This document shows, piece by piece, positions 1 through 13,716 of a stretch of DNA of 13,716 nucleotides; the stretch's first letter is position 1; each line of letters opens with the position of its first letter. Made by a program: the position numbers and the translations under genes. The stretch is taken from positions 1 through 13,716 of IMG/VR virus record IMGVR_UViG_2737471853_000004, one strand, 5' to 3'. The notes beneath the pieces were generated by a model. The model worked only from the letters and a program-made list of their open reading frames with translations, did not search any database and had not been told where the DNA came from. The DNA is from a virus (Duplodnaviria > Heunggongvirae > Uroviricota > Caudoviricetes).

Positions 1-69
1 AATAAAACCGGCATAGGCCACGCTATTTCATGGCTCTGGTTTTCTCTATTAAGGAGCTTCTGTAATGGC

Positions 70-588
70 TTATTCGATCAGCAATTCAGGCTGCGTTACC
101 TGCATGATGTGCTCATGCTCCACAGCCAGAACACGTTTCTCTTTCTTCCGCTCGTTCATCAACCGGCTGCCGATCGTGCCCTTCAACTTTGACCGCGTTT
201 CTTTGATGGCGTAGCGGTGCTGCATTTCTTCTCCCATCGCCATGCGTCGGCTTAGCTGCTCGGCCATCCAGTTAAAGGCATTGATGTAGCACTCCTTTAC
301 TGCGGCAGCTGTTTTTCCAGTGAACCCCATCACGAGCATCATGCATCCATCGCGTGTGATGTTATACATGGGCTGAACATCGCCATTTTTATCAATGAAA
401 TCAATGGGCGCAAAATTGCGCAGGGTGAAGTCGTCGGAGCATTTCAGGTTACGTATGGCGCGCAAAACGTCTTTGTGTCGCTTGCCAAAGTAGTCAGCCA
501 CCTTGAGTGATGTCGTGATTATCTTGTTGTCGAGGGTCGTGACCATTTCGCGGAAGTCGAAGGCCGGAATAACTGACGGATTATTCAT
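70..588 (-). CDS. rha: Rha-family phage regulatory protein (antirepressor-like)
   Basis: Translation contains TTSLKVADYFGKRHKDVLRAI and LVMGFTGKTAAAVKECYINAFN, which fit the Phage_pRha family as I recall it. Start trimmed to the Met of MNNPSVIPAF (ATG at 586-588); the longer ORF-track extension runs through the upstream terminator hairpin. Confidence 0.6.
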   Translation of the reverse strand: MNNPSVIPAFDFREMVTTLDNKIITTSLKVADYFGKRHKDVLRAIRNLKCSDDFTLRNFAPIDFIDKNGDVQPMYNITRDGCMMLVMGFTGKTAAAVKECYINAFNWMAEQLSRRMAMGEEMQHRYAIKETRSKLKGTIGSRLMNERKKEKRVLAVEHEHIMQVTQPELLIE

Positions 589-730
589 AGCGTCTTTACC
601 TTTTAGAAAGTGAGCCTGTCTCACAGAAAAGCCGCCCGAGAGAGGTCGCCACCTATAACGGCATTTCTCAGGCTCGCTTACTGAAAGGCTCTCGTTAATA
701 TGCGCGTGAGATGCGCTGTGAAATTCAGAT

Positions 731-755
731 ATAAAAAAGCCCCGCATCGCGAGGC
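731..755 (-). terminator. Candidate intrinsic terminator downstream of Rz
   Basis: On the minus strand, GCCUCGC-GAU-GCGGGGC (7 bp stem with one G-U, 3-nt loop) is followed by UUUUUUAUAU. The loop is tight, so confidence is moderate. Confidence 0.4.
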
Positions 756-787
756 TCATTAAATGGACTTTGTGATTTGCAAAAAAA

Positions 788-1225
788 TTATTTCAGGCAT
801 TGCGTCCTGATGTACTCCTGCAGGTAGTTAACCTGCGCGGTTATCCTGTCGATTCCACTTCGGAGACGGTAATAATTGAGTTCAGCATCTGCTGTAAGTC
901 CTGGGCTTTCTCCATCGCCCATGCCGCTGGCTCCGGTCGTTGACTTTGCACAGGTGGCGGCGACTTGCAGGCGCTTACGACCAGCAGAAACATCAGCACG
1001 GAGACTTTCGATAGTCGCGTTAGCATCAGCAAGCTCCTTTGTGTATCTGGCGTCGAGTTCTGCTACATCACGTTGACGCTTCTGCATGTCAGCGATGATG
1101 GATGTGGCTTTATCACGCTGATCTTTGTAGGCGATGGCGTTATCACGGTAATGATTAACAGCCCATGACAGACAGACGATGATGCAGATAACCAGAGCGG
1201 AGATAATCGCGGTGACTCTGCTCAT
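788..1225 (-). CDS. Rz: Rz-type i-spanin
   Basis: N-terminus [31 protein letters not shown] matches lambda Rz as I recall it; the remainder is diverged. Overlaps the R stop and sits directly after the endolysin, as in lambda. Confidence 0.85.
841..1032 (-). CDS. Rz1: Rz1-type o-spanin embedded in Rz in an alternative frame
   Basis: ORF lies wholly inside Rz. It has a lipoprotein-like signal with lipobox VSAC followed by a Pro-rich stretch ([13 protein letters not shown]), the typical architecture of embedded Rz1 genes. Confidence 0.7.
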
Positions 1226-1698
1226 ACCTCAATCTCTCTGACCGTTCCGCCTGCTTCTTTGAATTTTGCAATCAGGCTGTCAGCCTTATGCTCGAACTGA
1301 CCATAACCAGCACCCGGCAGTGAAGCCCAGATATTGCTGCAACGGTCGATTGCCTGACGGATATCACCACGATCAATCATCGGCAAAGCGCCACGCTCCT
1401 TAATCTGCTGCAATGCCACAGCATCCTGGCTTTTCGGAGAGAAGTCTTTCAGGCCAAGCTGCTTACGGTAGGCATCCCACCAACGGGAAAGAAGCTGGTA
1501 GCGTCCGGCGGCTGTTGATTTGAGTTTGGGGTTTAGCGTGACAAGTTTGCGAGGGTGATCGGAGTAATCAGTGAATAGCTCTCCTCCTACAATGACGTCA
1601 TAACCATGATTTCTGGTTTTCTGACGTCCGTTATCAGTTCCCTCTGACCACGCCAGCATATCGAGGAACGCCTTACGTTGATTATTGATTTCCACCAT
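1222..1698 (-). CDS. R: Endolysin R (lambda-type lytic transglycosylase)
   Basis: The 158-aa translation [39 protein letters not shown]... is recognisable as lambda R essentially along its whole length. Confidence 0.9.
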
Positions 1699-2005
1699 CT
1701 TCTACTCCGGCTTTTTTAGCAGCGAAGCGTTTGATAAGCGAACCAATCGAGTCAGTACCGATGTAGCCGATGAACACGCTCGTTATATAAGCGAGATTGC
1801 TACTTAGTCCGGCGAAGTCGAGAAGGTCACGAATGAACCAGGCGATAATGGCGCACATCGTTGCGTCGATTACTGTTTTTGTAAACGCACCGCCATTATA
1901 TCTGCCGCGAAGGTACGCCATTGCAAACGCAAGGATTGCCCCGATGCCTTGTTCCTTTGCCGCGAGAATGGCGGCTAACAGGTCATGTTTTTCTGGCATC
2001 TTCAT
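1682..2005 (-). CDS. S: Holin S (S107/S105 dual-start)
   Basis: 107 aa beginning [20 protein letters not shown] with the dual-start Met-Lys-Met motif. The upstream CCCCTTATTGGGG hairpin (sdi-like) and RBS match the lambda S leader. Confidence 0.9.
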
Positions 2006-2247
2006 GTCTTAGCCCCAATAAGGGGATTTGCTCTATTTAATTAGGAATAAGGTCGATTACTGATAGAACAAATCCAGGCTACTGTGTTTAGTAATCAGAT
2101 TTGTTCGTGACCGATATGCACGGGCAAAACGGCAGGAGGTTGTTAGCGCGACCTCTTGCCACCCGCTTTCACGAAGGTCATGTGTAGAAGTCCGCAGCGT
2201 AACTATCACTGATGAATTCAGGATAGCCAGTGGCTACGGCTCAGTTA

Positions 2248-2323
2248 TGGTGCTGTTTAACGGACTTGAACCGCTACCCATTCGCTTACAAGGCGACCGC
2301 TCTACCATTGGAGCTAAAACAGC
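2248..2323 (-). tRNA. tRNA-like gene, anticodon UGU by hand folding (Thr)
   Basis: The minus strand reads GCTGTTT-TA-GCTC-CAATGGTA-GAGC-G-GTCGC-CTTGTAA-GCGAA-TGGGT-AGCGG-TTCAAGT-CCGTT-AAACAGC-A-CCA. It has a 7-bp acceptor stem, a canonical D arm, a GGTTCAAGTCC T arm and an encoded CCA. The anticodon stem has one mismatch, so the isotype call is tentative. Confidence 0.55.
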
Positions 2324-2328
2324 ATGTT

Positions 2329-2403
2329 TGGCGGGACAGCGTGGACTCGAACCACGATAAGAAGGTTAACAGCCTTCCGTAATCACCTTTATACGACTGA
2401 CCC
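2329..2403 (-). tRNA. tRNA-like gene, anticodon GUU by hand folding (Asn); possibly degenerate
   Basis: The minus strand reads GGGTCAG-TC-GTAT...TTAC-G-GAAGG-CTGTTAA-CCTTC-TTAT-CGTGG-TTCGAGT-CCACG-CTGTCCC-G-CCA. T arm and anticodon arm are perfect and CCA is encoded. The acceptor stem has one T-T mismatch and the D stem is only 3 bp. Confidence 0.5.
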
Positions 2404-2466
2404 AAATAAAAAAAGCCACCGTTGCAACTTAAGAGTCACTAACGGCAGCTTACCTTCTAATTATGG

Positions 2467-2985
2467 CTAAATGGATAATTGCATGTCAAGGCTTTTAACA
2501 GCAACATGCTTAACTTTCTCAACACGTTTACGCATTTTGAAAGCATTTTGCATTGGCTGGTACAAAACAAATAACGATGCTTTCAGGATGTCGTCAATTT
2601 CGTTTCTACAGGTTGCCAGTGAAGGTTTTCTCCATCCCTCGCCACCACGTCCACACATCTTGCGTGGCTTTGCAGTCGCGTGATAGTAGGATGCAATTGC
2701 TCGCTTAGATGAACCATGAGCGTAGTAGCTGAGGAGGATGCCAAAGGCTTTTTTGTCAATGTACATGACGGAATCGACGACCTGAGAAATCAACATTCCA
2801 TCATCATCATTGCACATTGGCCTTGTCATAACTCTTCCCGGCTCTACGCTCTCCATGAACTTCGCTATTACGCTGCTCATGCGCTTTTCCAGACGACCTG
2901 AATAAACCCATGCGCCCCACAGTTCAAGCCAGCCATTCAGCCACTCGTGCTGCTCTTTGGTGAGGTTTAGTTCTCTTATGCCCAC
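2467..2985 (-). CDS. Late-gene antiterminator Q, non-lambda Q family
   Basis: 172 aa at the Q position between the nin region and the lysis cassette. Contains LELWGAWV and [13 protein letters not shown], which resemble the WGAW and Cys/Asp-rich motifs I recall from 933W-type Q proteins. It is not lambda Q. Confidence 0.65.
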
Positions 2986-3647
2986 GCGCCTTCTCCCTGT
3001 ACCTGAATCAATGTGAGGTTTCCGCAGAACACTGCGCCGGTATCGATATACATCTGGTTGGCAAACTTGAGTGGTTTCACTGCTGGCGTATGACCAAAGA
3101 TGAACGTGTCAGCTCCTTTGATTTCTTTCACGATCCCGTCTTGTGAGTTGCTGATTCGTTCGCGGTTCCAGATTACCTGCTGATGATCAACTGGCTTTCC
3201 AAATTCGTATTCGTCACAAGGATAATCGGCGTGGCAGATGACATATTTTTTACCTTCGCTCACCAGTTCGATGATTAACGGAAGTTCATCTGCTTTATGG
3301 GCAAGAGCTTTAGCCAGAATTTCTTTGTCGTAATCGAGATTAAAGAACCAGCCACCGCCATTAAACAGCCAGTGATTGACGTTTCCACGCTCTGATAAGC
3401 CATCAATCATCATTTGCTCATGGTTTCCACGTACAGCTCGGAACCAGGGGAATGTGATTAATTCCAGACATTCGACGTTCTCTGTACCGCGATCGACCAA
3501 ATCGCCAACCGAGATAAGCAGGTCTTTTTTGGTGTCGAATCCCATCGTCTCCAGTTTTTTCATCAGGTTCGTGTAGCATCCGTGCAGATCGCCAACTACC
3601 CAAATATTTCGGTATTTGCTGCCATCAATTTTTTCGTAATAGCGCAT
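2976..3647 (-). CDS. ninI: Ser/Thr protein phosphatase (lambda PP, NinI)
   Basis: [29 protein letters not shown]...GNHE carries the metallophosphatase GDxHG/GDxxDRG/GNHE motifs and is near-identical to lambda PP as I recall it. Start trimmed to MRYYEK (ATG 3645-3647). Confidence 0.9.
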
Positions 3648-3831
3648 CTCTTTCACTCCATCCGCGATGAACCATGAGAACGTCGTTGACGATGGCGTGC
3701 ATTTTCCCGTCTTTATCATCAACGTATTTTCTGACCGTACCGCGACTACATTTCAGTCTGCGTGCTACTTCTGTCTGGTTTCCGTATGCTTCAACGAGCA
3801 TGTCTGGAATGGTTTTTACTGAGAACGTCAT
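3625..3831 (-). CDS. ninH: NinH (small HTH protein)
   Basis: 68 aa [37 protein letters not shown]... matches lambda NinH. Its ATG overlaps the ninG stop as ATGA. Confidence 0.85.
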
Positions 3832-4439
3832 GCGGCCTCACTTCTGCTATTTCGCAGGTCTTTGAGTTTCTGTTGGTACTCTGCCTTGATCGCCTTGCAC
3901 TCTTCGATAGTCCAGCGATGGCGGCTATGGTTTGATTCGATTTCGTCTACTGCTTCCTGCCCTATGCGATTAATCAGTTCGACGCGATACGGAACGAGAT
4001 TTCCGCTTTTATGCTGGTTGCACACCACGCATTGCTTGTGAATATTGCGTTCATCAAATCGGAGTTGAGGTGCCGCAGCAGTTGTCCGGTAATGTCCGGC
4101 ATCCCACTGAGCAGACGTGAGCGTTCCGCACGAGATACATGGTAAGTCGCGGTCTCTTTCTCTGATGAAGGCGTTTACGGCTTGCTGGGCTTGTTTAATC
4201 CAGTAACTGCGGGGCTTTAAGGCGAGTTTTCGAATCTTCAGTTTATCTTTCTGTTTCTGCTCCTCTCGTCGTCGTTTCTTCTCTGCTGCTTTTTCCGCTT
4301 TTTCGCGTTCTTTGCTTCGTCGTTCGAGTGCTATCTTTGTTCCACACTCTGGAGAGCACCACCACTGATTAGCGAATGCAGGGTGAAACCATTCCCGACA
4401 TTCATCGTTTTTACATCGTCTTCGCGCTGGTTTAGCCAT
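3828..4439 (-). CDS. ninG: NinG / Rap recombination endonuclease
   Basis: 203 aa [33 protein letters not shown]... with Cys-rich clusters, matching lambda NinG (Rap). Confidence 0.9.
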
Positions 4440-4608
4440 CGTCTTCTTCCTCGTACATTGAGCTATTCGGATCGCTCATCAGTTCTGCGAAGCAGTGCTC
4501 ACACACGTGAACTTCCAGCACATGCAGCTTCTGACCGCAGTTAGCGCACGTTAAAGCCCGCTCGACGCTTTCTTTCTGGTATTGGAGGGATTGGGATGGG
4601 CTAAGCAT
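4432..4608 (-). CDS. ninF: NinF
   Basis: Not in the ORF track (58 aa). Hand translation of the minus strand gives [58 protein letters not shown], matching lambda NinF. Its stop overlaps the ninG ATG (ATGGCTAA). Confidence 0.8.
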
Positions 4609-4960
4609 TATTGGCGTCCTGCATCATGAGAAAGACAATCATGGCGGCGCGGAGGGAATTTTCATGTATAGCTCGCTTAGATTTACAGTCGGCCACACCA
4701 CGTGCACCCCACTCGTCTTCATCGAGATTGATAATGCTAATCCTGTACTTCTCAATAATCGGCCATGAGGCGCTAGGATCATTGCAGTAGTCAGGTAAAG
4801 GGTTTAATGGCTCAAAAGTTGTATCAGCATTTCCGTAATACCATTTGTTGGTGTTATTCCCTGATGTTTCCGGTTTACATGCCCAAAGGCCTTTAAAAAT
4901 TATGTCTCCTACCATTCTGTTAATTTCAAAATCACTTAACTGTGAATAATCCATTGTCAT
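4601..4960 (-). CDS. Hypothetical protein between ninE and ninF (NinX-like position)
   Basis: ORF occupies the slot where P22-like nin regions carry ninX; lambda has no gene here. Start is ambiguous: the ATG at 4958-4960 overlaps the ninE stop as ATGA, while the ATG at 4952-4954 has GAGGAA about 7 nt upstream. No catalytic motif recognised. Confidence 0.5.
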
Positions 4961-5133
4961 TTCCTCGCACGATGTCTTAGCCACCGGATATCCCACAGGT
5001 GAGCCGTGTAGTTGAAGGTTTTTACGTCAGATTCTTTTGGGATTGGCTTGCGTTTATTTCTGGAGCGTTTCGTTGGAAGGTATTTGCAGTTTTCGCAGAT
5101 GATGTCGGTGATACTTCGTCGCTGTCGTCTCAT
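4957..5133 (-). CDS. ninE: NinE
   Basis: [52 protein letters not shown]... matches lambda NinE. Start trimmed to MRRQRR (ATG 5131-5133), overlapping the methylase stop. Confidence 0.8.
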
Positions 5134-5657
5134 GCCGTCCTCCTGACGCCCTGCCCGATCGCCATCAATGCCGCTTTGGATACGGTAGTAAACATCCGTC
5201 GAGGACTGATGAACGGTCGCCAAATCAGCAGCATTGAGCCTTTGCTGTTTCCCTTCTTCTCCAGCCCCGTCGATGGTTCGATAAAATTAATCCGTCCATC
5301 AGTGATGATGCGAACTTCGTCAACGCTCTCCAGAGCCTTGCTGAACCATCCGACTGACATATCCTCTGGCACAAGCATCACTACCGTCTGTCGCTGTTGT
5401 ATGCACTGCTCAGCGGCTTTTTCTACCCACGGCCTGATATTGCTGTACGGTGGGTTATTCCAGATTGCACCGTGGCTTACCCACTCAGAATTGAGCGCGT
5501 CGTCGGCCTCAGTTAACCAGTGAGCGCACAGAGCATTTTTGTCGCTCGCTGCCGAATCCAGCCAGAATCCAAACTCAATATCCAGTGCATCAAAAAGCCA
5601 AAGCGGCGTTTGCCAGCAGTCCTTGTCGTGTGCTGGCGTATTTGATTTGATAGTCAT
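5130..5657 (-). CDS. Phage DNA N6-adenine methyltransferase (Dam-like, orphan)
   Basis: Contains the NPPY catalytic motif (IWNNPPYS) and a [12 protein letters not shown]-terminal region typical of the phage N6-adenine methylase family. Start trimmed to MTIKSN (ATG 5655-5657), overlapping the ninB stop. It sits where lambda has ninC/ninD. Confidence 0.8.
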
Positions 5658-6094
5658 GCAGCCCGATCTCCCCATCGCGCTTTCCATTCGAGAGCCAGTC
5701 GCGCTTCGTCTGACCACTTAACGCCACGCTCTGTACCGAATGCCTGTATAAGCTCTAATAGCTCCGCAAATTCGCTTACACGCATCCTGCTGGTTGACTG
5801 GCCTATTACCACAAAGCCATTCCCGGCAAGGTTAGGAACAACGTCCTGCTGCTTTAATGCAGCTGTAAAAACGCACTTCCAGCTTTCTGCATCCAGCCAG
5901 CGACCATGCCATTCAACCTGACGAGAGACGTCACCAAGGCAAGCCCAAAGCTTTCGATTCTGGTCTAAGCTGCGGTTGCGTTCCTGAATGGTTACTACGA
6001 TTGGTTTGGTTGGGTCTGGAAGGATTTGCTGTACTGCGTGAATAGCATTTTGCTGAAGTTCTGGAGATCGAATTTCAAAGGTCAGTTTTTTCAT
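5654..6094 (-). CDS. ninB: NinB (Orf recombination mediator)
   Basis: MKKLTFEIRSPELQQNAIHAVQQILPDPTKPIVVTIQERNRSLDQNRKLWACLGDVSRQ... is near-identical to lambda NinB. Start trimmed to MKKLTF (ATG 6092-6094) with GAGGGAAG upstream; the ORF-track extension begins at a TTG. Confidence 0.9.
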   Translation of the reverse strand: MKKLTFEIRSPELQQNAIHAVQQILPDPTKPIVVTIQERNRSLDQNRKLWACLGDVSRQVEWHGRWLDAESWKCVFTAALKQQDVVPNLAGNGFVVIGQSTSRMRVSEFAELLELIQAFGTERGVKWSDEARLALEWKARWGDRAA

Positions 6095-6110
6095 GACTTC
6101 CCTCTCCCCC

Positions 6111-6142
6111 AAATAAAAAGGCCTGCGATTACCAGCAGGCCT
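6111..6142 (-). terminator. Intrinsic terminator between ren and ninB (tR2-like)
   Basis: On the minus strand, AGGCCUGC-ugguaauc-GCAGGCCU (perfect 8-bp GC-rich stem, 8-nt loop) is followed by UUUUAUUU. The position matches lambda tR2. Confidence 0.6.
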
Positions 6143-6167
6143 GTTATTAGCTCAGTGATGTAGATAG

Positions 6168-6458
6168 TCATTGCCTTACCTCCATAAGCGCCCTATTAAT
6201 AAACGCCGTCATTGGATTTGCACATCCCCACCCCGTACCATCTTGATTTCTTTTAATTGGCTCCTTCTTCACTTTGCGTTTTGCATAAATAACCGTCTTC
6301 CACTTACGCTCAACAACACTCAAATGTCCTTGTTTCACCATATGCCTTGCTGCTTGAGCGATTCTGTTATTTGGTATTCCGGTGATCAGTGCTAATTCAT
6401 GTGGGGAGAATTGTTCATGAGTTTTCAGATATTCCAGGATGATTTCTTTTCCAGTCAC
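6168..6458 (-). CDS. ren: Ren-like protein
   Basis: 96 aa starting MTGKEIILEYLKTHEQFSPHELALITG, similar in its N-terminus, length and position to lambda Ren. The start codon appears to be GTG (6456-6458) with AGGAG 6 nt upstream, overlapping the DnaC-like stop. Confidence 0.65.
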   Translation of the reverse strand: MTGKEIILEYLKTHEQFSPHELALITGIPNNRIAQAARHMVKQGHLSVVERKWKTVIYAKRKVKKEPIKRNQDGTGWGCANPMTAFINRALMEVRQ

Positions 6459-7300
6459 GATCTGCTCCTGTAACTATCCCATGTAAACGCAAGAGTGCAC
6501 CCGCCGCCATCATTCATCCTGTCAATAACACGCTCACCAATGAATGCAGACAGTTCATCTTTGCTCTGGTTGCTAATCAGGATTGTTGGCTTCATGCGCT
6601 CGTAGCGGGTGTTGATGATTTCGAACATGATCATCTTTTCCGCCTCGCTTCCAAACTGCACACCAACCTCATCGATAATTAGCAGGTCAGGTTTAGTGAA
6701 CTGTCGGATCACTTCATCCTCTGTGCGGGTGGAGTTTTTCGACCATGTTGATTTATATTCTCTGGCAATTTTCAGCGCCGTTGTGAAAATAGCTGAGCTT
6801 TGATGTTCCGTAATTGCGTGCCGGGCGATAGCCAGTGCAAGATGATTCTTTCCAGTACCAGGCTTTCCACACATAACCAGCCCACCGCCTTTCTGTAACC
6901 TCTCAGGCCATTTGCTGGCGTATGCCTGACACACCCTGAGCACTCTCTTTGCATCGTCGTTGACTGGCTCGTAGTTCTGTAGTGTGCAACCCTTGAATCG
7001 TTCAGGAATATCAAGATTATTCAACAGAAACTCGACATTGCGCTTACGTGATTCCTCGTCGATTTTAATCTTCTCTGCCTGTAGCCGAATAAGCTCATCT
7101 CTCATGCATTCCGGGCATTCGCTAGGTCTTGAGGCAAACTTAATTGGCCCAGTCGAGTAACGGTTACGCTGCTCAAACTCACCATGTTTTTCACAGATGC
7201 CAGTGCCAATTTCTACAGATGTATGCTCGATAGCAATTGGCGGAGAACTCAATTCTGCAAGTTTTTTCTCCAGTTGGGAGATCTTTTCATCCAGCGTCAT
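6455..7300 (-). CDS. DnaC-like replicative helicase loader (AAA+ ATPase)
   Basis: Walker A GKPGTGKNHLA, Walker B LLIIDEVG, and an N-terminal Cys-rich region. Start trimmed to MTLDEK (ATG 7298-7300) with AGGAG 5 nt upstream. It occupies the lambda P position. Confidence 0.85.
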   Translation of the reverse strand: MTLDEKISQLEKKLAELSSPPIAIEHTSVEIGTGICEKHGEFEQRNRYSTGPIKFASRPSECPECMRDELIRLQAEKIKIDEESRKRNVEFLLNNLDIPERFKGCTLQNYEPVNDDAKRVLRVCQAYASKWPERLQKGGGLVMCGKPGTGKNHLALAIARHAITEHQSSAIFTTALKIAREYKSTWSKNSTRTEDEVIRQFTKPDLLIIDEVGVQFGSEAEKMIMFEIINTRYERMKPTILISNQSKDELSAFIGERVIDRMNDGGGCTLAFTWDSYRSRS

Positions 7301-7302
7301 GT

Positions 7303-8145
7303 TCACTCCTGCGCCCATGAAGGCATTTCAGTTTGTCCGTAATCTTTGGTGGCAAAGTTTTCCTGCATAGCTCGATGCTGCGGCCTCGGTTGAGATTTCC
7401 CCTTTGGAGTCTTGGGCTCAAAAATCCCCTGCCAACCACTGGCGATGCTCTGGTTTATAATTTCTTCAGGTGTATATCCCTTCTCCAGACTTCTGCTTAG
7501 AACGTTGATAGCCTGAGTGACGCTTTGCTTAGACTTGATCGACTTACCTATCTCCTTACGATAGGTAACCCACGACAACCATGTTTCTGCTGATAACCAA
7601 TCAGGCAACTCTGTTTCTAGCGGGTCGAACTTCTGAGAAACTTTTTTGGGGGATATAGGGGGTTTATTAATATTTTCTTTTGTCTTTAAAGAATGTCTTT
7701 TGTGTGTCTCTAACTTCGAGACATTGAGTGTCTCTAATTTGGAGACATTTTTTGTCTCTAACTTCGAGACAAAGTTGCTAACTTGGAGACACTTGCTGAA
7801 TTGCCACGCAGATACCTCCCTGTTTACACCGATTTGATTTCCATCCATAAACAGGCAATTCATTGAAATCAGTTCTTTTTTAGCCTTGTTAACATTCTGC
7901 CTTGATAGTCCTGTTAACTGAGCAATTTGCTCATCGGCTATTCGATCTGTTTTCTTATTGAATCCATATGTTTTCCGGACGTAGGCCAGCATAACTTTCA
8001 ACTGGCGAGCGGTTAAATCGGCACTTGCGATAGCTTCCAGCAGCTCGTTAGCGAATCTGGTGTAACCATCATCGATATCAGCCACTCTTCGCTCCTGTTC
8101 AACAGGTTCACTCTTCGGCAGGTAAAATACTTCAGCCAGGCTCAT
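7303..8145 (-). CDS. O: Replication initiator O-like protein (origin-binding N-domain, non-lambda C-domain)
   Basis: The N-terminal region DDGYTRFANELLEAIASADLTARQLKVMLAYVRKTYGFNKKTDRI parallels the lambda O N-domain. The central VSKLET repeats are encoded by the iterons. Start chosen at MSLAEV (ATG 8143-8145) with GGAGG 6 nt upstream. Confidence 0.8.
   Translation of the reverse strand: MSLAEVFYLPKSEPVEQERRVADIDDGYTRFANELLEAIASADLTARQLKVMLAYVRKTYGFNKKTDRIADEQIAQLTGLSRQNVNKAKKELISMNCLFMDGNQIGVNREVSAWQFSKCLQVSNFVSKLETKNVSKLETLNVSKLETHKRHSLKTKENINKPPISPKKVSQKFDPLETELPDWLSAETWLSWVTYRKEIGKSIKSKQSVTQAINVLSRSLEKGYTPEEIINQSIASGWQGIFEPKTPKGKSQPRPQHRAMQENFATKDYGQTEMPSWAQE
7705..7791. repeat. Replication-origin iterons, four about 19-bp inverted-symmetry repeats at 24-bp spacing
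   Basis: TGTCTCTAACTTCGAGACA at 7705-7723, TGTCTCTAATTTGGAGACA at 7729-7747, TGTCTCTAACTTCGAGACA at 7753-7771, and TTGCTAACTTGGAGACA at 7775-7791. An AT-rich tract at 7640-7700 flanks them on the side downstream in the O reading direction, the same arrangement as lambda ori inside O. Confidence 0.75.
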
Positions 8146-8776
8146 TTCCAACCTCCGCATCAAAGCATTGGGCTTCAAGAGACTTAACCATCACCACACT
8201 GCCATCTGTATTAATAACTATCGATGAGTTATATTTGCTTATCAGTTGCTTCGCGTAATCAATTCCGGCGCGAATAAGGAAATTTTTCACCGCAGGAAGA
8301 TGACCAACTACACTACCCAGACCTTGCTCTATAAGCTCCTCATTAAGATCAAGCTCATTTTCATGGCGAAAAGAAATGAATGAGTCGTAAATTGCGTATT
8401 CTGCCGTCTCGCCATTTCTTTCAGGGCCAACCAGCGCCCTTATTTCATTTAGAGATTCATAAAGATCATTATCTTCAAGCTTGAAAAACTCTCGATTATC
8501 ACTAAGCCTCTCTTTTGCAAAGGCTTTATGAATAAGTTTTTCATCTGATGCGGGATTATTTGAATGAAAGGCTGCTATCACCTTAAATGGCTTAGGAACG
8601 CCAGTAGAGGCTGAAATTTCTTTAGCCCTAACTTCTGGTGAATGCTTAGTCATCCCAATCTTATAAATTCCCGGCATGCACTCATTCGAAAGCACATAAA
8701 CAAAGCCATTTGATTTAAAATCATCTGGCACCTTCATGCTCTTCAGAACCTGGAATTTGTCATTTTCGTATGTCAT
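8132..8776 (-). CDS. T5orf172 / GIY-YIG-like domain protein, function unknown
   Basis: GFVYVLSNECMPGIYKIGMTKHSPEVRAKEI...KLIHKAFAKERLSDNREFFK fits the T5orf172 motif pattern as I recall it. AGGAG lies 5 nt upstream of the ATG. It is inserted between cII and O, where lambda has no gene, and its last 14 nt overlap the O start. Confidence 0.5.
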   Translation of the reverse strand: MTYENDKFQVLKSMKVPDDFKSNGFVYVLSNECMPGIYKIGMTKHSPEVRAKEISASTGVPKPFKVIAAFHSNNPASDEKLIHKAFAKERLSDNREFFKLEDNDLYESLNEIRALVGPERNGETAEYAIYDSFISFRHENELDLNEELIEQGLGSVVGHLPAVKNFLIRAGIDYAKQLISKYNSSIVINTDGSVVMVKSLEAQCFDAEVGNEPG

Positions 8777-8810
8777 AATTACTCCTGTGGATTGATCCAG
8801 TCTTTCTACA

Positions 8811-9089
8811 TCAGGCCTCGAAGAATTCGCCGTTCTTCGGGGCTTTTTCTTTTGTCAGCATTCTGGCTACTTTCTTAGCCAGTTCAGCCAACTCCTCGTC
8901 TTCAACACCCCATTCAAGAACAGCCAGAAGCATGGCCATCTTTGGGATAAAGCTGTCTTTCCATCGCGAAATTTGCGATTCATTGATCCCTAATGCATCA
9001 GCAACCTTTCGCTGACCACGTACAGCAATTCGATTCAGGATGTTGCTTGTAATTGCATTCGCTTTCTTGCGAGTACTTGTAAGTTGCAT
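8811..9089 (-). CDS. cII: CII-like transcriptional activator
   Basis: MQLTSTRKKANAITSNILNRIAVRGQRKVADALGINESQISRWKDSFIPKMAMLLAVLEWGV parallels lambda CII (SQISRWK and MLLAVLEWGV conserved), though the protein is diverged. The upstream leader TTGTTATCTAAGGAAATACTTACATATG is the lambda cII leader. Start trimmed to this ATG (9087-9089). Confidence 0.8.
   Translation of the reverse strand: MQLTSTRKKANAITSNILNRIAVRGQRKVADALGINESQISRWKDSFIPKMAMLLAVLEWGVEDEELAELAKKVARMLTKEKAPKNGEFFEA
8814..8853 (+). terminator. Intrinsic terminator antisense to the cII 3' end (oop-like)
   Basis: Plus strand CCUCGAAGAA-uucgccg-UUCUUCGGGG (10-bp stem with one G-U, 7-nt loop) followed by CUUUUUCUUUU. It lies antisense to the cII 3' end, as the oop terminator does in lambda. 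Confidence 0.6.
9043..9056 (+). promoter_or_regulatory. Candidate CII-binding site TTGC-N6-TTGC (PRE-like)
   Basis: TTGCTTGTAATTGC on the plus strand, inside the cII N-terminal coding region and oriented toward cro and cI. The tetrad repeat is perfect, but the -10 is not clear and the spacing to the cII ATG differs from lambda. Confidence 0.4.
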
Positions 9090-9168
9090 ATGTAAGTATT
9101 TCCTTAGATAACAATTGATTGAATGTATGCAAATAAATGCATACACCATAGGTGTGGTTTAATTTGAT

Positions 9169-9200
9169 GCCCTTTTTCAGGGCTGGGATGTGTAAGAGCG
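9169..9200 (-). promoter_or_regulatory. nutR (boxA and boxB)
   Basis: The minus strand reads CGCTCTTACACAT (boxA, 9188-9200) and GCCCTGAAAAAGGGC (boxB, 9169-9183), between cro and cII. Confidence 0.8.
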
Positions 9201-9207
9201 GGGTTAT

Positions 9208-9417
<210 letters not shown>

Positions 9418-9432
9418 TTAGTACATGCAACT

Positions 9433-9502
9433 ATTATCACCGCTAGAGGTAAAATAGTCAACACGCACGGTGTTAGATATTTATCCCTTGCGGTGATAGA
9501 TT
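9433..9502. promoter_or_regulatory. Right operator OR1-OR2-OR3 with divergent promoters PR and PRM
   Basis: OR1 at 9435-9451 (TATCACCGCTAGAGGTA), OR2 at 9459-9475 (CAACACGCACGGTGTTA), OR3 at 9482-9498 (TATCCCTTGCGGTGATA). PR -35 TTGACT and -10 GATAAT are on the minus strand; PRM -10 TAGATT is at 9497-9502 ahead of the cI ATG at 9509. Confidence 0.9.
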
Positions 9503-9505
9503 TAA

Positions 9506-10222
<717 letters not shown>

Positions 10223-10253
10223 TTGTTTTATTTTTCACGTAATAGGATGATTT

Positions 10254-11015
10254 ATGACACAGTTTCAACTTGCATTAATCGCTAGAGAAGTTGATGGAGA
10301 AGTCATCCATCTTCGCACCAAAGACGGATACATCAATGCCACCGCGATGTGCAAGTCTGCGGGGAAGCTACTTGCTGACTATACACGACTAAAAACAACA
10401 CAAGATTTTTTTGATGAATTATCACGCGATATGGGGATTCCCATATCGGAGTTAATTCAATCATTTAAAGGCGGAAGAGCAGAGAATCAAGGGACTTGGG
10501 TTCATCCAGACATCGCAATTAATTTAGCTCAGTGGCTATCTCCAAAATTTGCAGTGCAAGTATCGAGATGGGTGCGTGAGTGGATGTCAGGTGAAAGAGC
10601 GCCTGCCGAACTCCCTATCCACCTTAAGCGGTATATGACAAACCGAGGCAGAGTTCCTCATACGCACTTTTCTATGCTTAATGAACTGACGTTTAACTTG
10701 GTTGCGCCACTTGAACAGGCCGGATATACGCTGCCAGAAAAAATGGTCCCTGATATTTCAGAGGGTAGGGTTTTCTCGCAATGGCTCCGTGACAACCGGG
10801 GGGTTGAGCCGAAGACATTCCCAACATATAACCATGAGTACCCAGATGGCCGGACATTCCCGGTACGTCTATACCCAAACGAATATCTTGCAGATTTCAA
10901 ACAACACTTCAACGAAGTGTGGCTGCCTCAGTACGCTCCTAAATATTTTGCTGAACGAGACCAAAGGGCATTGACGTTGATTGAGAAAATCATGCTACCT
11001 GACCTTGATTCCTAA
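10254..11015 (+). CDS. KilA-N domain protein in the rexAB position (candidate BstA-like abortive-infection protein)
   Basis: The N-terminal roughly 110 aa (GEVIHLRTKDGYINATAMCKSAGK...GTWVHPDIAINLAQWLSPKFAVQVSRWV) fit the KilA-N fold pattern; the C-terminal roughly 140 aa are unassigned. The gene starts 31 nt after the cI stop on the same strand and is followed by a terminator. Confidence 0.6.
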   Translation: MTQFQLALIAREVDGEVIHLRTKDGYINATAMCKSAGKLLADYTRLKTTQDFFDELSRDMGIPISELIQSFKGGRAENQGTWVHPDIAINLAQWLSPKFAVQVSRWVREWMSGERAPAELPIHLKRYMTNRGRVPHTHFSMLNELTFNLVAPLEQAGYTLPEKMVPDISEGRVFSQWLRDNRGVEPKTFPTYNHEYPDGRTFPVRLYPNEYLADFKQHFNEVWLPQYAPKYFAERDQRALTLIEKIMLPDLDS

Positions 11016-11021
11016 ATGTTA

Positions 11022-11046
11022 TTCCCGGCCAAGAGCCGGGTTTTCT
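11022..11046 (+). terminator. Intrinsic terminator ending the cI / KilA-N transcription unit
   Basis: CCCGGC-caaga-GCCGGG (6-bp GC stem, 5-nt loop) followed by TTTTCTTT, 7 nt after the stop codon. Confidence 0.6.
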
Positions 11047-11204
11047 TTGCCTCACGATCCCCCTCACCCAAGAACACATAACCAATTGTATTTATTTGAA
11101 AATTAATAGATACAACTCACTAAACATCGCAATTCAGATCTCTCGATCACCTTCCCAATCCACACAACCCTGCAAAGAATAAATCTATATAAAAACATAC
11201 AGAT

Positions 11205-11267
11205 AACCATCTGCGGTGATAAATTATCTCTGGCGGTGTTGACATAAATACCACTGGCGGTGATACT
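11205..11267 (+). promoter_or_regulatory. Left operator OL3-OL2-OL1 with promoter PL
   Basis: OL3 AACCATCTGCGGTGATA at 11205-11221, OL2 TATCTCTGGCGGTGTTG at 11225-11241, OL1 TACCACTGGCGGTGATA at 11249-11265. PL -35 TTGACA at 11239-11244 and -10 GATACT at 11262-11267, reading toward N. Confidence 0.9.
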
Positions 11268-11307
11268 AAGCACATCAGCAGGATGCACTGACCACCATTG
11301 AAGGTGA

Positions 11308-11338
11308 GGCTCTTAAAAATTTAGCCCTGAAGAAGGGC
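11308..11338 (+). promoter_or_regulatory. nutL (boxA-like and boxB)
   Basis: boxB GCCCTGAAGAAGGGC at 11324-11338 is preceded by GGCTCTTAAAAA (boxA-like, with a first-base difference from the CGCTCTTA consensus). Confidence 0.8.
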
Positions 11339-11448
11339 AGCATTCAAAGCAGAAAGCTTTGAGTAGCGCGAAATGCAGCTGCAAGACAGCAACCGTGGAG
11401 ATAAGCATCACGGCGCGTTACTCAAAGCTAACTGACAGGAGAATCCAG

Positions 11449-11775
11449 ATGGATGCACAAACACGCCGCCGCGAACGTCGCGCAGAGAAACAGGCTCAAT
11501 GGAAAGCAGCAAATCCCCTGTTGGTTGGGGTAAGCGCAAAACCAGTTAACCGCCCTATTCTCTCGCCGAATCGCAAACCGAAATCACGAGTAGAAAGCGC
11601 ACTGAATCCGATAGACCTTACGGTGCTGGCTGAATACCACGAACAGATTGAAAGCAACCTGCAACGTATTGAGCGCAAGAATCAGCGCACATGGTACAGC
11701 AAGCCACGCAGTGAAATGGGTGTGACTTGTGTTGGTCGCCAGAAAATGAAATTAGGCAGCAAACCACTTATTTGA
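11449..11775 (+). CDS. N: Antiterminator N
   Basis: MDAQTRRRERRAEKQAQWKAANPLLVGVSAKPVNRPIL..., with the arginine-rich boxB-binding motif; lambda N-like but diverged toward the C-terminus. Start trimmed to the ATG at 11449 with a GGAG RBS. Confidence 0.9.
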   Translation: MDAQTRRRERRAEKQAQWKAANPLLVGVSAKPVNRPILSPNRKPKSRVESALNPIDLTVLAEYHEQIESNLQRIERKNQRTWYSKPRSEMGVTCVGRQKMKLGSKPLI

Positions 11776-11785
11776 GGACTGATAC

Positions 11786-12028
11786 ATGAGAGTAAAAACT
11801 ATGGGCGCAAGCCCATTAAGTGGTCGTATTTTTCAAGGAACATTAAACACTGAAAAAGGAATGTGGGTGGGAAAGAAAGAAGATGTAACCGAACAGGCAG
11901 TTAAGGCAGTAGCTGAACACATGATGATAAAAGACCAGAAATATGCATACGAAACGAAGGATGGCAAATGGCTGATAATAAGTCATCAAATAGTTGATAA
12001 ATTACCAGAAGAGTTTATTGCTGATTAA
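11786..12028 (+). CDS. Hypothetical 80-aa protein immediately downstream of N
   Basis: GAGGA lies 7 nt upstream of the ATG, 11 nt after the N stop. No family recognised. It occupies the region where lambda carries ral and sieB. Confidence 0.5.
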   Translation: MRVKTMGASPLSGRIFQGTLNTEKGMWVGKKEDVTEQAVKAVAEHMMIKDQKYAYETKDGKWLIISHQIVDKLPEEFIAD

Positions 12029-12156
12029 AATTATTTTGGCATAAACAACAGAATAAACACTGCACTGTGTATTCATTCCAACGAGTGAATACACGGAGCA
12101 ATGTCGCTCGTAACTAAACAGGAGCCGACTTGTTCTGATTATTGGAAATCTTCTTT

Positions 12157-12183
12157 GCCCTCCAGTGTGAGGGCGATTTTTTA
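12157..12183 (+). terminator. Intrinsic terminator (tL2-like) upstream of ea10
   Basis: GCCCTC-cagtgt-GAGGGC (6-bp stem) followed by GATTTTTTAT. Confidence 0.55.
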
Positions 12184-12202
12184 TCTATGAGGATATGAAT
12201 AG

Positions 12203-12571
12203 ATGTCAAACATCAAAAAATACATCATTGATTACGACTGGAAAGCATCAATAGAAATTGAAATCGACCATGACGTAATGACAGAGGAAAAACTTCACCA
12301 GATTAATAATTTCTGGTCAGACTCTGAATACCGACTCAATAAACACGGCTCTGTATTAAATGCTGTATTAATCATGCTGGCGCAACATGCTCTGCTTATA
12401 GCAATTTCAAGCGACTTAAATGCATATGGTGTTGTGTGTGAGTTCGACTGGAATGATGGAAATGGTCAGGAAGGATGGCCTCCAATGGATGGTAGCGAAG
12501 GAATAAGAATTACCGATATCGATACATCAGGAATATTTGATTCAGATGATATGACTATCAAAGCCGCCTGA
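12203..12571 (+). CDS. ea10: Ea10-like protein
   Basis: 122 aa MSNIKKYIIDYDWKASIEIEIDHDVMTEEKLHQINNFW... with an acidic C-terminus. I recall it as lambda Ea10, and the position upstream of cIII agrees. Confidence 0.7.
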   Translation: MSNIKKYIIDYDWKASIEIEIDHDVMTEEKLHQINNFWSDSEYRLNKHGSVLNAVLIMLAQHALLIAISSDLNAYGVVCEFDWNDGNGQEGWPPMDGSEGIRITDIDTSGIFDSDDMTIKAA

Positions 12572-12594
12572 GCGCAGCGTTACCGCATACCAAT

Positions 12595-12620
12595 AACGCT
12601 TCACTCGAGGCGTTTTTCGT
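12595..12620 (+). terminator. Candidate hairpin plus U-tract between ea10 and cIII
   Basis: AACGCUUC-acuc-GAGGCGUU (8-bp stem with one G-U) followed by UUUCGUUAU. The U-tract is interrupted, so this may be an attenuator or RNA-processing structure rather than a full terminator. Confidence 0.35.
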
Positions 12621-12643
12621 TATGTATAAATAAGGAGCACACC

Positions 12644-12808
12644 ATGCAATATGCCATTGCAGGGTGGCCTGTTGCTGGCTGCCCTTCCGAATCTTTACTT
12701 GAACGAATCACCCGTAAATTACGTGACGGATGGAAACGCCTTATCGACATACTTAATCAGCCAGGAGTCCCAAAAAATGGATCAAACACTTATGGCTATC
12801 CAGACTAA
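12644..12808 (+). CDS. cIII: CIII (FtsH inhibitor)
   Basis: Not listed separately in the ORF track. Hand translation from the ATG at 12644 (AAGGAG RBS) gives [54 protein letters not shown], which is lambda CIII. Confidence 0.85.
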   Translation: MQYAIAGWPVAGCPSESLLERITRKLRDGWKRLIDILNQPGVPKNGSNTYGYPD

Positions 12809-12920
12809 ATTCACTATCGCCACTTTTATTGGCGATGAAAAGATGTTTCGTGAGGCCGTCGACGCTTATAAAAAATGGATATTAATACTGAAACTGAGAT
12901 CAAGCAAAAGCATTCACTAA
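12777..12920 (+). CDS. kil: Kil (host-killing, FtsZ inhibitor)
   Basis: [47 protein letters not shown] (47 aa) matches lambda Kil. It overlaps the cIII 3' end in another frame, as in lambda. Confidence 0.8.
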
Positions 12921-13027
12921 TCCCCTTTCCTGTTTTCCTAATCAGCCTGGCATTTCGCGGGCGATATTTTCACAGCCATTTTCAGGAGTTCAGCCATGAA
13001 CGCTTATTACATTCAGGATCGTCTTGA
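12875..13027 (+). other. Short ORF encoding a Gam-long N-terminal-like peptide, out of frame with gam
   Basis: Hand translation gives [50 protein letters not shown]. Its first roughly 35 aa resemble the N-terminal extension of lambda GamL, but the frame diverges just before the Gam ATG. Confidence 0.35.
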
Positions 13028-13292
13028 GGCTCAGAGCTGGGCGCGTCACTACCAGCAGATCGCCCGTGAAGAGAAAGAGGCAGAACTGGCAGACGACCTG
13101 GAAAAGGGTCTGCCCCAGCATTTGTTTGAATCGCTATGCATCGATCATTTGCAACGCCACGGGGTCAGCAAAAAAGCCATTACCCGTGCGTTCGATGACG
13201 ATGTTGAGTTTCAGGAGCGCATGGCAGAACACATCCGGTACATGGTTGAAACCATTGCTCACCACCAGGTTGATATTGATTCAGAGGTATAA
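12996..13292 (+). CDS. gam: Gam (RecBCD inhibitor), short GamS form
   Basis: 98 aa [56 protein letters not shown]... matches lambda GamS. GGAG RBS upstream. Confidence 0.9.
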
Positions 13293-13297
13293 AACGG

Positions 13298-13716
13298 ATG
13301 AGTACAGCACTCGCAACGCTGGCTGGGAAGCTGGCTGAACGTGTCGGCATGGATTCTGTCGACCCACAGGAACTGATCACCACTCTTCGCCAGACGGCAT
13401 TTAAAGGTGATGCCAGCGATGCGCAGTTCATCGCATTGTTGATCGTCGCCAACCAGTACGGCCTTAATCCGTGGACGAAAGAAATTTACGCCTTCCCTGA
13501 TAAGCAGAACGGCATCGTTCCGGTGGTGGGCGTTGATGGCTGGTCCCGCATCATCAATGAAAACCAGCAGTTTGATGGCATGGACTTTGAGCAGGACAAT
13601 GAATCCTGCACATGCCGGATTTACCGCAAGGACCGTAATCATCCGATCTGCGTTACCGAGTGGATGGATGAATGCCGCCGCGAACCATTCAAAACCCGCG
13701 AAGGCAGAGAAATCAC
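13298..13716 (+). CDS. bet: Bet (Red-beta single-strand annealing protein), 3'-truncated by window end
   Basis: Hand translation from the ATG at 13298 gives MSTALATLAGKLAERVGMDSVDPQELITTLRQTAFKGDASDAQFIALLIVANQYGLNPWTKEIYAFPDKQNG..., which is lambda Bet. The ORF runs off the end of the window. Confidence 0.9.
   Translation, partial: MSTALATLAGKLAERVGMDSVDPQELITTLRQTAFKGDASDAQFIALLIVANQYGLNPWTKEIYAFPDKQNGIVPVVGVDGWSRIINENQQFDGMDFEQDNESCTCRIYRKDRNHPICVTEWMDECRREPFKTREGREI

Follow-up and report, generated by a model that had tools for sequence, protein, structure and literature searches.

The phage-encoded Dam enzymes of the PF05869/TIGR01712 family were founded on the Dam of phage T1 (M.T1) and on that of the Haemophilus phage HP1 (orf13), both of which are named as relatives in the annotation of phage VT2-Sakai. 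The VT2-Sakai enzyme itself, M.EcoVT2Dam (gene dam, H0105; protein BAA94133), corresponds to L0094 in 933W and to dam in phi24B, and the gene is also annotated as dam in the Shiga toxin (Stx) 2 phage 1717. Here we describe an allele of this gene in a DNA stretch of 13,716 nucleotides (positions 1 to 13,716 of the IMG/VR virus record IMGVR_UViG_2737471853_000004, Caudoviricetes), which as a whole is called the window in the following. The gene, for which the name dam is kept, is located at window positions 5130..5657 on the minus strand. It is already known: its annotation in 933W and VT2-Sakai dates from around 1999-2000 and its cloning as M.EcoVT2Dam from 2001, and today the NCBI pipeline assigns its name automatically.

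In a passage of a later paper which cites Radlinska & Bujnicki 2001, M.EcoVT2Dam is described as an orphan methyltransferase "known to target 5'-GATC-3'" (PMC6602927), and the same work appears in a list of papers on phage Dam-like genes (PMC7556043). The dam gene of phi24B has the same length as the one described here (528 nt); its product shows 100% identity with the VT2-Sakai protein and 99% with that of HK97, and its transcript level changes significantly upon prophage induction (PMC3342100).

The open reading frame (ORF) in the window starts with the ATG at 5657..5655, ends with the TGA at 5132..5130 and encodes a phage N-6-adenine DNA methyltransferase of 175 amino acids. Its product is identical to BAA94133 in 174 of 175 positions, the sole change being A174T (T in the window). 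On the DNA level nine differences are found, eight of which are synonymous and one non-synonymous. The gene has the same length, the same position between ninB and ninE and the same 4-nt overlaps with its neighbours as in VT2-Sakai. A longer ORF that begins with the GTG at 5717 and would give 195 amino acids was rejected as the start of dam, since the matches to the family profiles start from residues 2-4 of the 175-residue form, the homologues are 175 residues long, and the ATG at 5657 makes the ATGA junction with ninB. We consider it about 90% probable that dam encodes an orphan S-adenosylmethionine (AdoMet)-dependent DNA N6-adenine methyltransferase of the PF05869/TIGR01712 family, which would in effect be M.EcoVT2Dam and would methylate the adenine of GATC. 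Gene structure, family, near-identity, predicted fold and cassette limits are taken from our own analysis and the GATC target from the literature, while expression timing, coupling and role are inferred.

The family assignment is due to full-length profile matches. Residues 4-169 align to positions 1-167 of the 169 positions of PF05869, 'DNA N-6-adenine-methyltransferase (Dam)' (6.4e-65, 218.4 bits at a cut-off of 28.1), and residues 2-168 to positions 1-165 of the 165 positions of the NCBIfam equivalog TIGR01712, 'phage N-6-adenine-methyltransferase' (9.7e-80, 265.9 bits at a cut-off of 97.05). The product also matches phrog_111, 'DNA methyltransferase' (1.2e-87), and its best PADLOC matches are 'orphan methyltransferase' models. 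PF05869 is the sole Pfam family found at E <= 0.01. The catalytic (D/N)PP(Y/F) motif IV of PF05869/TIGR01712 is present as NPPY at residues 68-71 (codons 68-71, 5445..5456, -), and the claim of an earlier note, made from the sequence alone, that an NPPY-bearing methyltransferase is encoded at 5130-5657 is thereby borne out. That note had tied its claim to an AdoMet-binding motif detectable by profile search. Such a search was run and the claim survived it, with full-length matches far above the curated cut-offs and a predicted fold of the class I AdoMet-dependent N6-adenine methyltransferases.

The same note had called the enzyme Dam-like, and this stands in part. As far as target and chemistry are concerned the term is right, as passages on the 174/175-identical M.EcoVT2Dam report GATC activity. 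The family is a different one. E. coli Dam, T4 Dam and DpnM belong to the alpha-class GATC methyltransferases of PF02086 (MethyltransfD12), for which the dam product gave no match in the Pfam search at E <= 0.01. Structural alignments of these three enzymes to the window protein span 105-110 residues with 8-11% identity, and the window protein, which lacks their inserted target-recognition domain, is shorter by about 100 residues. The protein, judged by its sequence, belongs to the family of the T1, HP1 and VT2 phages and shares the function, and not the family, of E. coli and T4 Dam. The T1/HP1-type Dams are likewise small orphan enzymes whose motif IV lies near residue 70. They are about 30-40% identical and come from unrelated contexts, namely virulent T1-like phages and the P2-like HP1, with no nin region. 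Relatives in T1-like phages (e.g. Tls), annotated as dam or DNA methyltransferase, show 32-38% identity over more than 80% of the length.

A distant match to the family was also seen in Klebsiella phage PIN1 (PQ803402.1, 12457-13056; 28% identity over 91% of the query). It underlies a coding sequence annotated as 'phosphoadenosine phosphosulfate reductase', which is the same annotation as that of lambda NinC, the protein whose gene is replaced by dam in the window. The PIN1 annotation may reflect a fusion or a mis-annotation.

To look at conserved positions, the window protein was aligned with 46 homologues of full or near full length and down to 59% identity (47 rows). The invariant residues cluster at two sites, the first core strand with its loop and motif IV. 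N68, P69, P70 and Y71 are invariant and lie at the end of strand 64-68 of an AlphaFold model, which has a mean pLDDT (per-residue confidence) of 86.5 and a pTM (predicted template modelling score) of 0.85. F29, F31, L33, D34 and A36 are also invariant and belong to model strand 31-36. Codons 29-38 (5544..5573, -) cover this first Rossmann-like core strand and the next loop, and from its position in the predicted fold the FxFxLDxA strand-loop near the N-terminus is presumed to be the AdoMet-binding motif I. The predicted fold can confidently be assigned to the class I AdoMet-dependent N6-adenine methyltransferases with a Rossmann-like architecture. AdoMet would be bound at the presumed FxFxLDxA strand-loop, and NPPY 68-71 would hold the flipped-out adenine.

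A sequence search of the PDB gave a chance-level match only (SdiA, E 0.24), so that no solved structure of the family is detectable by sequence. The best structural neighbours of the model are nearly all AdoMet-dependent N6-adenine methyltransferases of the class I Rossmann-like fold. They are, with their scores in brackets, CAPAM (10.1), M.TaqI (9.5), M.BseCI (9.0), E. coli Dam (8.7), MmeI (8.7), a type I modification (M) subunit (8.5) and CamA (8.4). METTL3/METTL14 and METTL4 gave weak Foldseek matches only, with E > 0.1.

Several points weigh against a GATC-specific DNA methyltransferase. E. coli hosts are normally Dam-positive, and it is hard to see what another GATC methylase would add. 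The nearest solved structure is that of an RNA cap adenosine methyltransferase and not of a DNA enzyme. The GATC specificity of M.EcoVT2Dam is taken from papers that cite the original work, and the activity of the window protein from its sequence. The role of phage-encoded Dam enzymes has been called "still not well understood" (PMC7556043), and for another phage protein annotated as a 'DNA adenine methyltransferase' 16S rRNA proved to be the preferred substrate (PMC10810198).

The latter protein, M.EcoPA8orf6770P of the Stx phage phiPA8, is likewise an orphan adenine methyltransferase which is carried by prophages of the lambdoid Stx type and was annotated as a DNA methylase. It differs from the window protein in that it belongs to the MT-A70 family, carries DPPW, is encoded at another locus (gp5), needs a partner protein and prefers 16S rRNA (PMC10810198). 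The window protein has no match to MT-A70 (PF05063) in Pfam at E <= 0.01 and carries NPPY, not DPPW. We therefore rejected the idea that dam is the rRNA methyltransferase gene of the phiPA8 prophage, and that enzyme is relevant here only as a caution about trusting annotations. That RNA (an adenine of rRNA, mRNA or tRNA) is the main or an additional substrate of the dam product, possibly with the help of a partner protein, appears very unlikely: the two observations that suggest it are the top structural neighbour and the precedent in this unrelated family, and the literature on the near-identical M.EcoVT2Dam, as represented in the citing papers, speaks against it.

The size of the protein bears on its target. 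With 175 amino acids it corresponds approximately to a bare catalytic domain without a separate target-recognition domain, which would leave room for a DNA adenine methyltransferase with a specificity other than GATC or with a relaxed one. In other methyltransferase families small changes are enough to shift specificity (PMC6602927), a Serratia prophage adenine methyltransferase with extremely relaxed specificity is known (PMC7556043), and in E. coli methylomes the activity of the phage enzyme is indistinguishable from that of the host Dam. However, the window protein differs from M.EcoVT2Dam in the penultimate residue (174) only, which lies outside the profile-matched residues 4-169 and in the lower-confidence C-terminal tail of the model. 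Moreover, methylomes of Shiga toxin-producing E. coli with copies 99% identical to M.EcoVT2Dam revealed no unexplained extra adenine motif attributable to the enzyme (PMC6602927). An altered specificity is for these reasons regarded as highly improbable, and methylation of GATC remains our preferred reading.

It could also be argued that dam has lost its activity and persists as a passenger of the nin region, as the nin-region genes are non-essential in lambda (PMC8022706) and truncated as well as fused versions of the protein exist in the databases. The frame in the window is, however, intact and of full length, all invariant family residues are present, and the 175-residue form represents the dominant cluster with thousands of member sequences. 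The ratio of eight synonymous to one non-synonymous difference from the VT2-Sakai allele, together with the invariance of NPPY and of the N-terminal motif in the homologues, points to purifying selection. A non-functional gene is thus the most improbable of the explanations considered here.

The gene is widespread. Of the 5426 complete E. coli genomes 1566 (about 29%) contain a copy which is at least 95% identical, annotated as 'phage N-6-adenine-methyltransferase' and flanked by NinB and NinE. A tblastn search found dam with at least 95% identity in 244 phage records, mostly from Stx-converting and other lambdoid coliphages, and the order ninB-dam-ninE is annotated in hundreds of phages. Homologues with 99% identity are listed for HK97 and for the prophage CP-933V. 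The linkage of ninB and dam is not fixed in all cases. An Edwardsiella prophage that lacks ninB has a 72%-identical homologue, which follows or precedes replication genes on one side and rusA on the other and overlaps both neighbours by 4 nt. The conserved feature is the position in the early-right operon and not a particular neighbour.

In the window dam shows the features of a lambdoid nin cassette, as its place in the rightward early operon is on the Q side of the replication genes and ahead of Q, and as it is tightly packed and has ATGA-type overlaps. The upstream neighbour ninB (orf, a recombination mediator; 5654..6094, -) matches PF05772 (2.6e-54) and is part of a DNA block 94.2% identical to lambda 40553-41084. 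The downstream neighbour ninE (4957..5133, -) matches PF05322 over its full length (7e-44) and belongs to a block 94.6% identical to lambda 42080-42263. The stop codon (TGA) of ninB and the start codon (ATG) of dam share an ATGA at 5654..5657 (-), and the stop codon of dam (TGA) and the start codon of ninE (ATG) share a second one at 5130..5133 (-). Both overlaps comprise 4 nt and read TCAT on the plus strand. A third 4-nt overlap of the nin region is found between ninG and ninH. A GGAG is present at 5668-5671 (-), 10 nt 5' of the dam ATG, and the ribosome-binding site of ninE, AGGAGG (5139..5144, -), falls inside dam near its 3' end, with 5 nt separating it from the ninE ATG. ATGA overlaps are a typical arrangement of nin regions (PMC8022706).

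These junctions suggest that the translation of ninB, dam and ninE is coupled, in which case ribosomes would pass from ninB through dam into ninE via the 4-nt overlaps. Of the earlier claim that dam is translationally coupled to both neighbours through ATGA overlaps, the overlaps are seen at both ends and the coupling proper is our reading of them.

The limits of the cassette were determined by a BLASTN comparison of the window with lambda 38000-46500, with gene limits taken from the lambda annotation. Lambda homology stops at window position 5654, which corresponds to lambda 41084, the final base of ninB. It restarts at window position 5144 (lambda 42080), 10 nt before the ninE ATG and within the ninE ribosome-binding site described above. 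The 509 bp in between (5145..5653, -) have no lambda counterpart and stand in place of lambda 41085-42079, i.e. of ninC and most of ninD. The breakpoints bear out the proposal that the methyltransferase gene replaces ninC/ninD between ninB and ninE.

The orphan status of the enzyme agrees with the gene content of the window, since none of the ORFs of at least 90 amino acids in these 13.7 kb matched a restriction endonuclease family in profile searches; nearly all belong to ordinary lambdoid gene families. The direct neighbours are NinB and NinE, and the earlier statement that the window contains no cognate restriction endonuclease holds for all ORFs of this size.

One ORF deserves mention in this respect. 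It is located between cII and O (8132..8776, -), encodes 214 amino acids, overlaps the listed O ORF by 47 nt and matches T5orf172/MUG113 (GIY-YIG-like). In PADLOC its product is matched by the candidate PDC-S57 (4.5e-29) and by PD-Lambda-1, in the latter case by the C-terminal part, and it may be a nuclease module of a defence or homing type. A single close relative (CurroJimenez_Bas106, 99.1%) was found in 50,697 phage records. We rejected it as a hidden cognate nuclease of dam, from which it is separated by 2.5 kb and by ninB, a ren-like ORF, the loader gene and O. A role as partner is also ruled out by its one close match in the phage records in comparison to 244 for dam, and by VT2-Sakai, which lacks it and has a 48-residue ORF at that position instead.

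A terminator scan revealed an intrinsic-terminator-like hairpin with a T tract just 5' of ninB (6109..6142, -). The hairpin (6142..6119, -) has an 8-bp stem with 6 GC pairs, is followed by TTTTATTT and lies inside the block shared with lambda 40553-41084, at what we take to be the position of lambda tR2. If it is tR2, dam would be part of the N-dependent delayed-early transcript, and this placement would fit the induction-responsive expression of phi24B dam, whose product is identical to that of VT2-Sakai.

As a working model, the dam cassette downstream of the tR2-like terminator would be transcribed delayed-early after infection or induction. The phage enzyme would then methylate GATC on the fast-replicating phage DNA faster than the host Dam does, or would do so in hosts without Dam. 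Such methylation may protect the phage DNA from GATC-directed restriction of the MboI/DpnII type and from host proteins acting on unmethylated or hemimethylated GATC. MutH and SeqA are host functions of that kind. Virion DNA of P22 and lambda was reported to be undermethylated by the host Dam (PMC8022706). A GATC methylase supplied by the phage in the course of replication would make up for this deficit. In the window GATC occurs 42 times, whereas trinucleotide frequencies predict 71 occurrences (ratio 0.59) and base composition predicts 53. Depletion is also seen for CTAG (0.32) and AGCT (0.65), and that of GATC is therefore given little weight.

It appears unlikely that the main role is one other than restriction evasion. 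Such a role could be the full methylation of GATC in replicating or recombining DNA, directed against MutH, SeqA and methylation-sensing defences, or else a second, RNA-directed adenine methylation. The former would fit the place of dam among the recombination genes ninB and ninG (or rusA), and the latter is hinted at by the nearest structural neighbour, the cap-adenosine methyltransferase PCIF1/CAPAM. The gene is of minor importance as a find; lambdoid phages of Dam-positive hosts often carry a GATC methylase of their own.

The window as a whole covers a lambdoid early region in reverse orientation, so that the genes of the rightward operon are found on the minus strand. They are arranged in the order cII, the T5orf172/GIY-YIG-like ORF, O, a DnaC/IstB-like loader gene, the ren-like ORF, ninB and dam, followed by ninE, ninX, ninF, ninG, ninH, a gene for a NinI-type phosphatase, Q, the holin gene S, the endolysin gene R, Rz and a Rha-like gene. 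The plus strand carries cI, a KilA-N/BstA-like gene, N, a DUF2528 gene and gam. The window is a mosaic of lambda-like blocks with 93-99% identity and of non-lambda cassettes, and none of the phage records and complete E. coli genomes searched covers more than 71% of it in one place. The mosaic also differs from that of VT2-Sakai in the lambda-like cro, ninF-ninI and lysis genes, in the DnaC-like loader for P and in the BstA-like gene beside cI.

Relative to lambda, ninX (PF10765, P22 NinX / DUF2591; 4601..4996, -) is inserted between ninE and ninF. As listed, the ORF shares 40 nt with ninE, which makes it probable that ninX really starts further downstream. The replication module differs from that of lambda in that the DnaC/IstB-like AAA+ loader gene (PF01695; 6455..7318, -) occupies the position of P. 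After the loader gene follows a 96-residue ORF (6168..6458, -), which matches phrog_1687 (MarR-type regulator, 6.7e-40) and phrog_142 (Ren-like, 2e-13). A 127-residue ORF (13259..13642, -) matches phrog_18788 of unknown function (5.9e-88). It is situated at the expected start of the plus-strand gene bet after gam and may be an antisense ORF which is annotated repeatedly in phage records.

Directly 3' of cI, at the position of rexA/rexB in lambda, a gene for a protein of 253 amino acids is located (10254..11015, +). The protein contains a KilA-N domain (8.2e-27) and matches over its full length the PADLOC model BstA (2.5e-20) and phrog_6287, 'BstA abortive infection system' (1.8e-82). By these matches it is probably a prophage defence gene of the BstA type within the immunity region.
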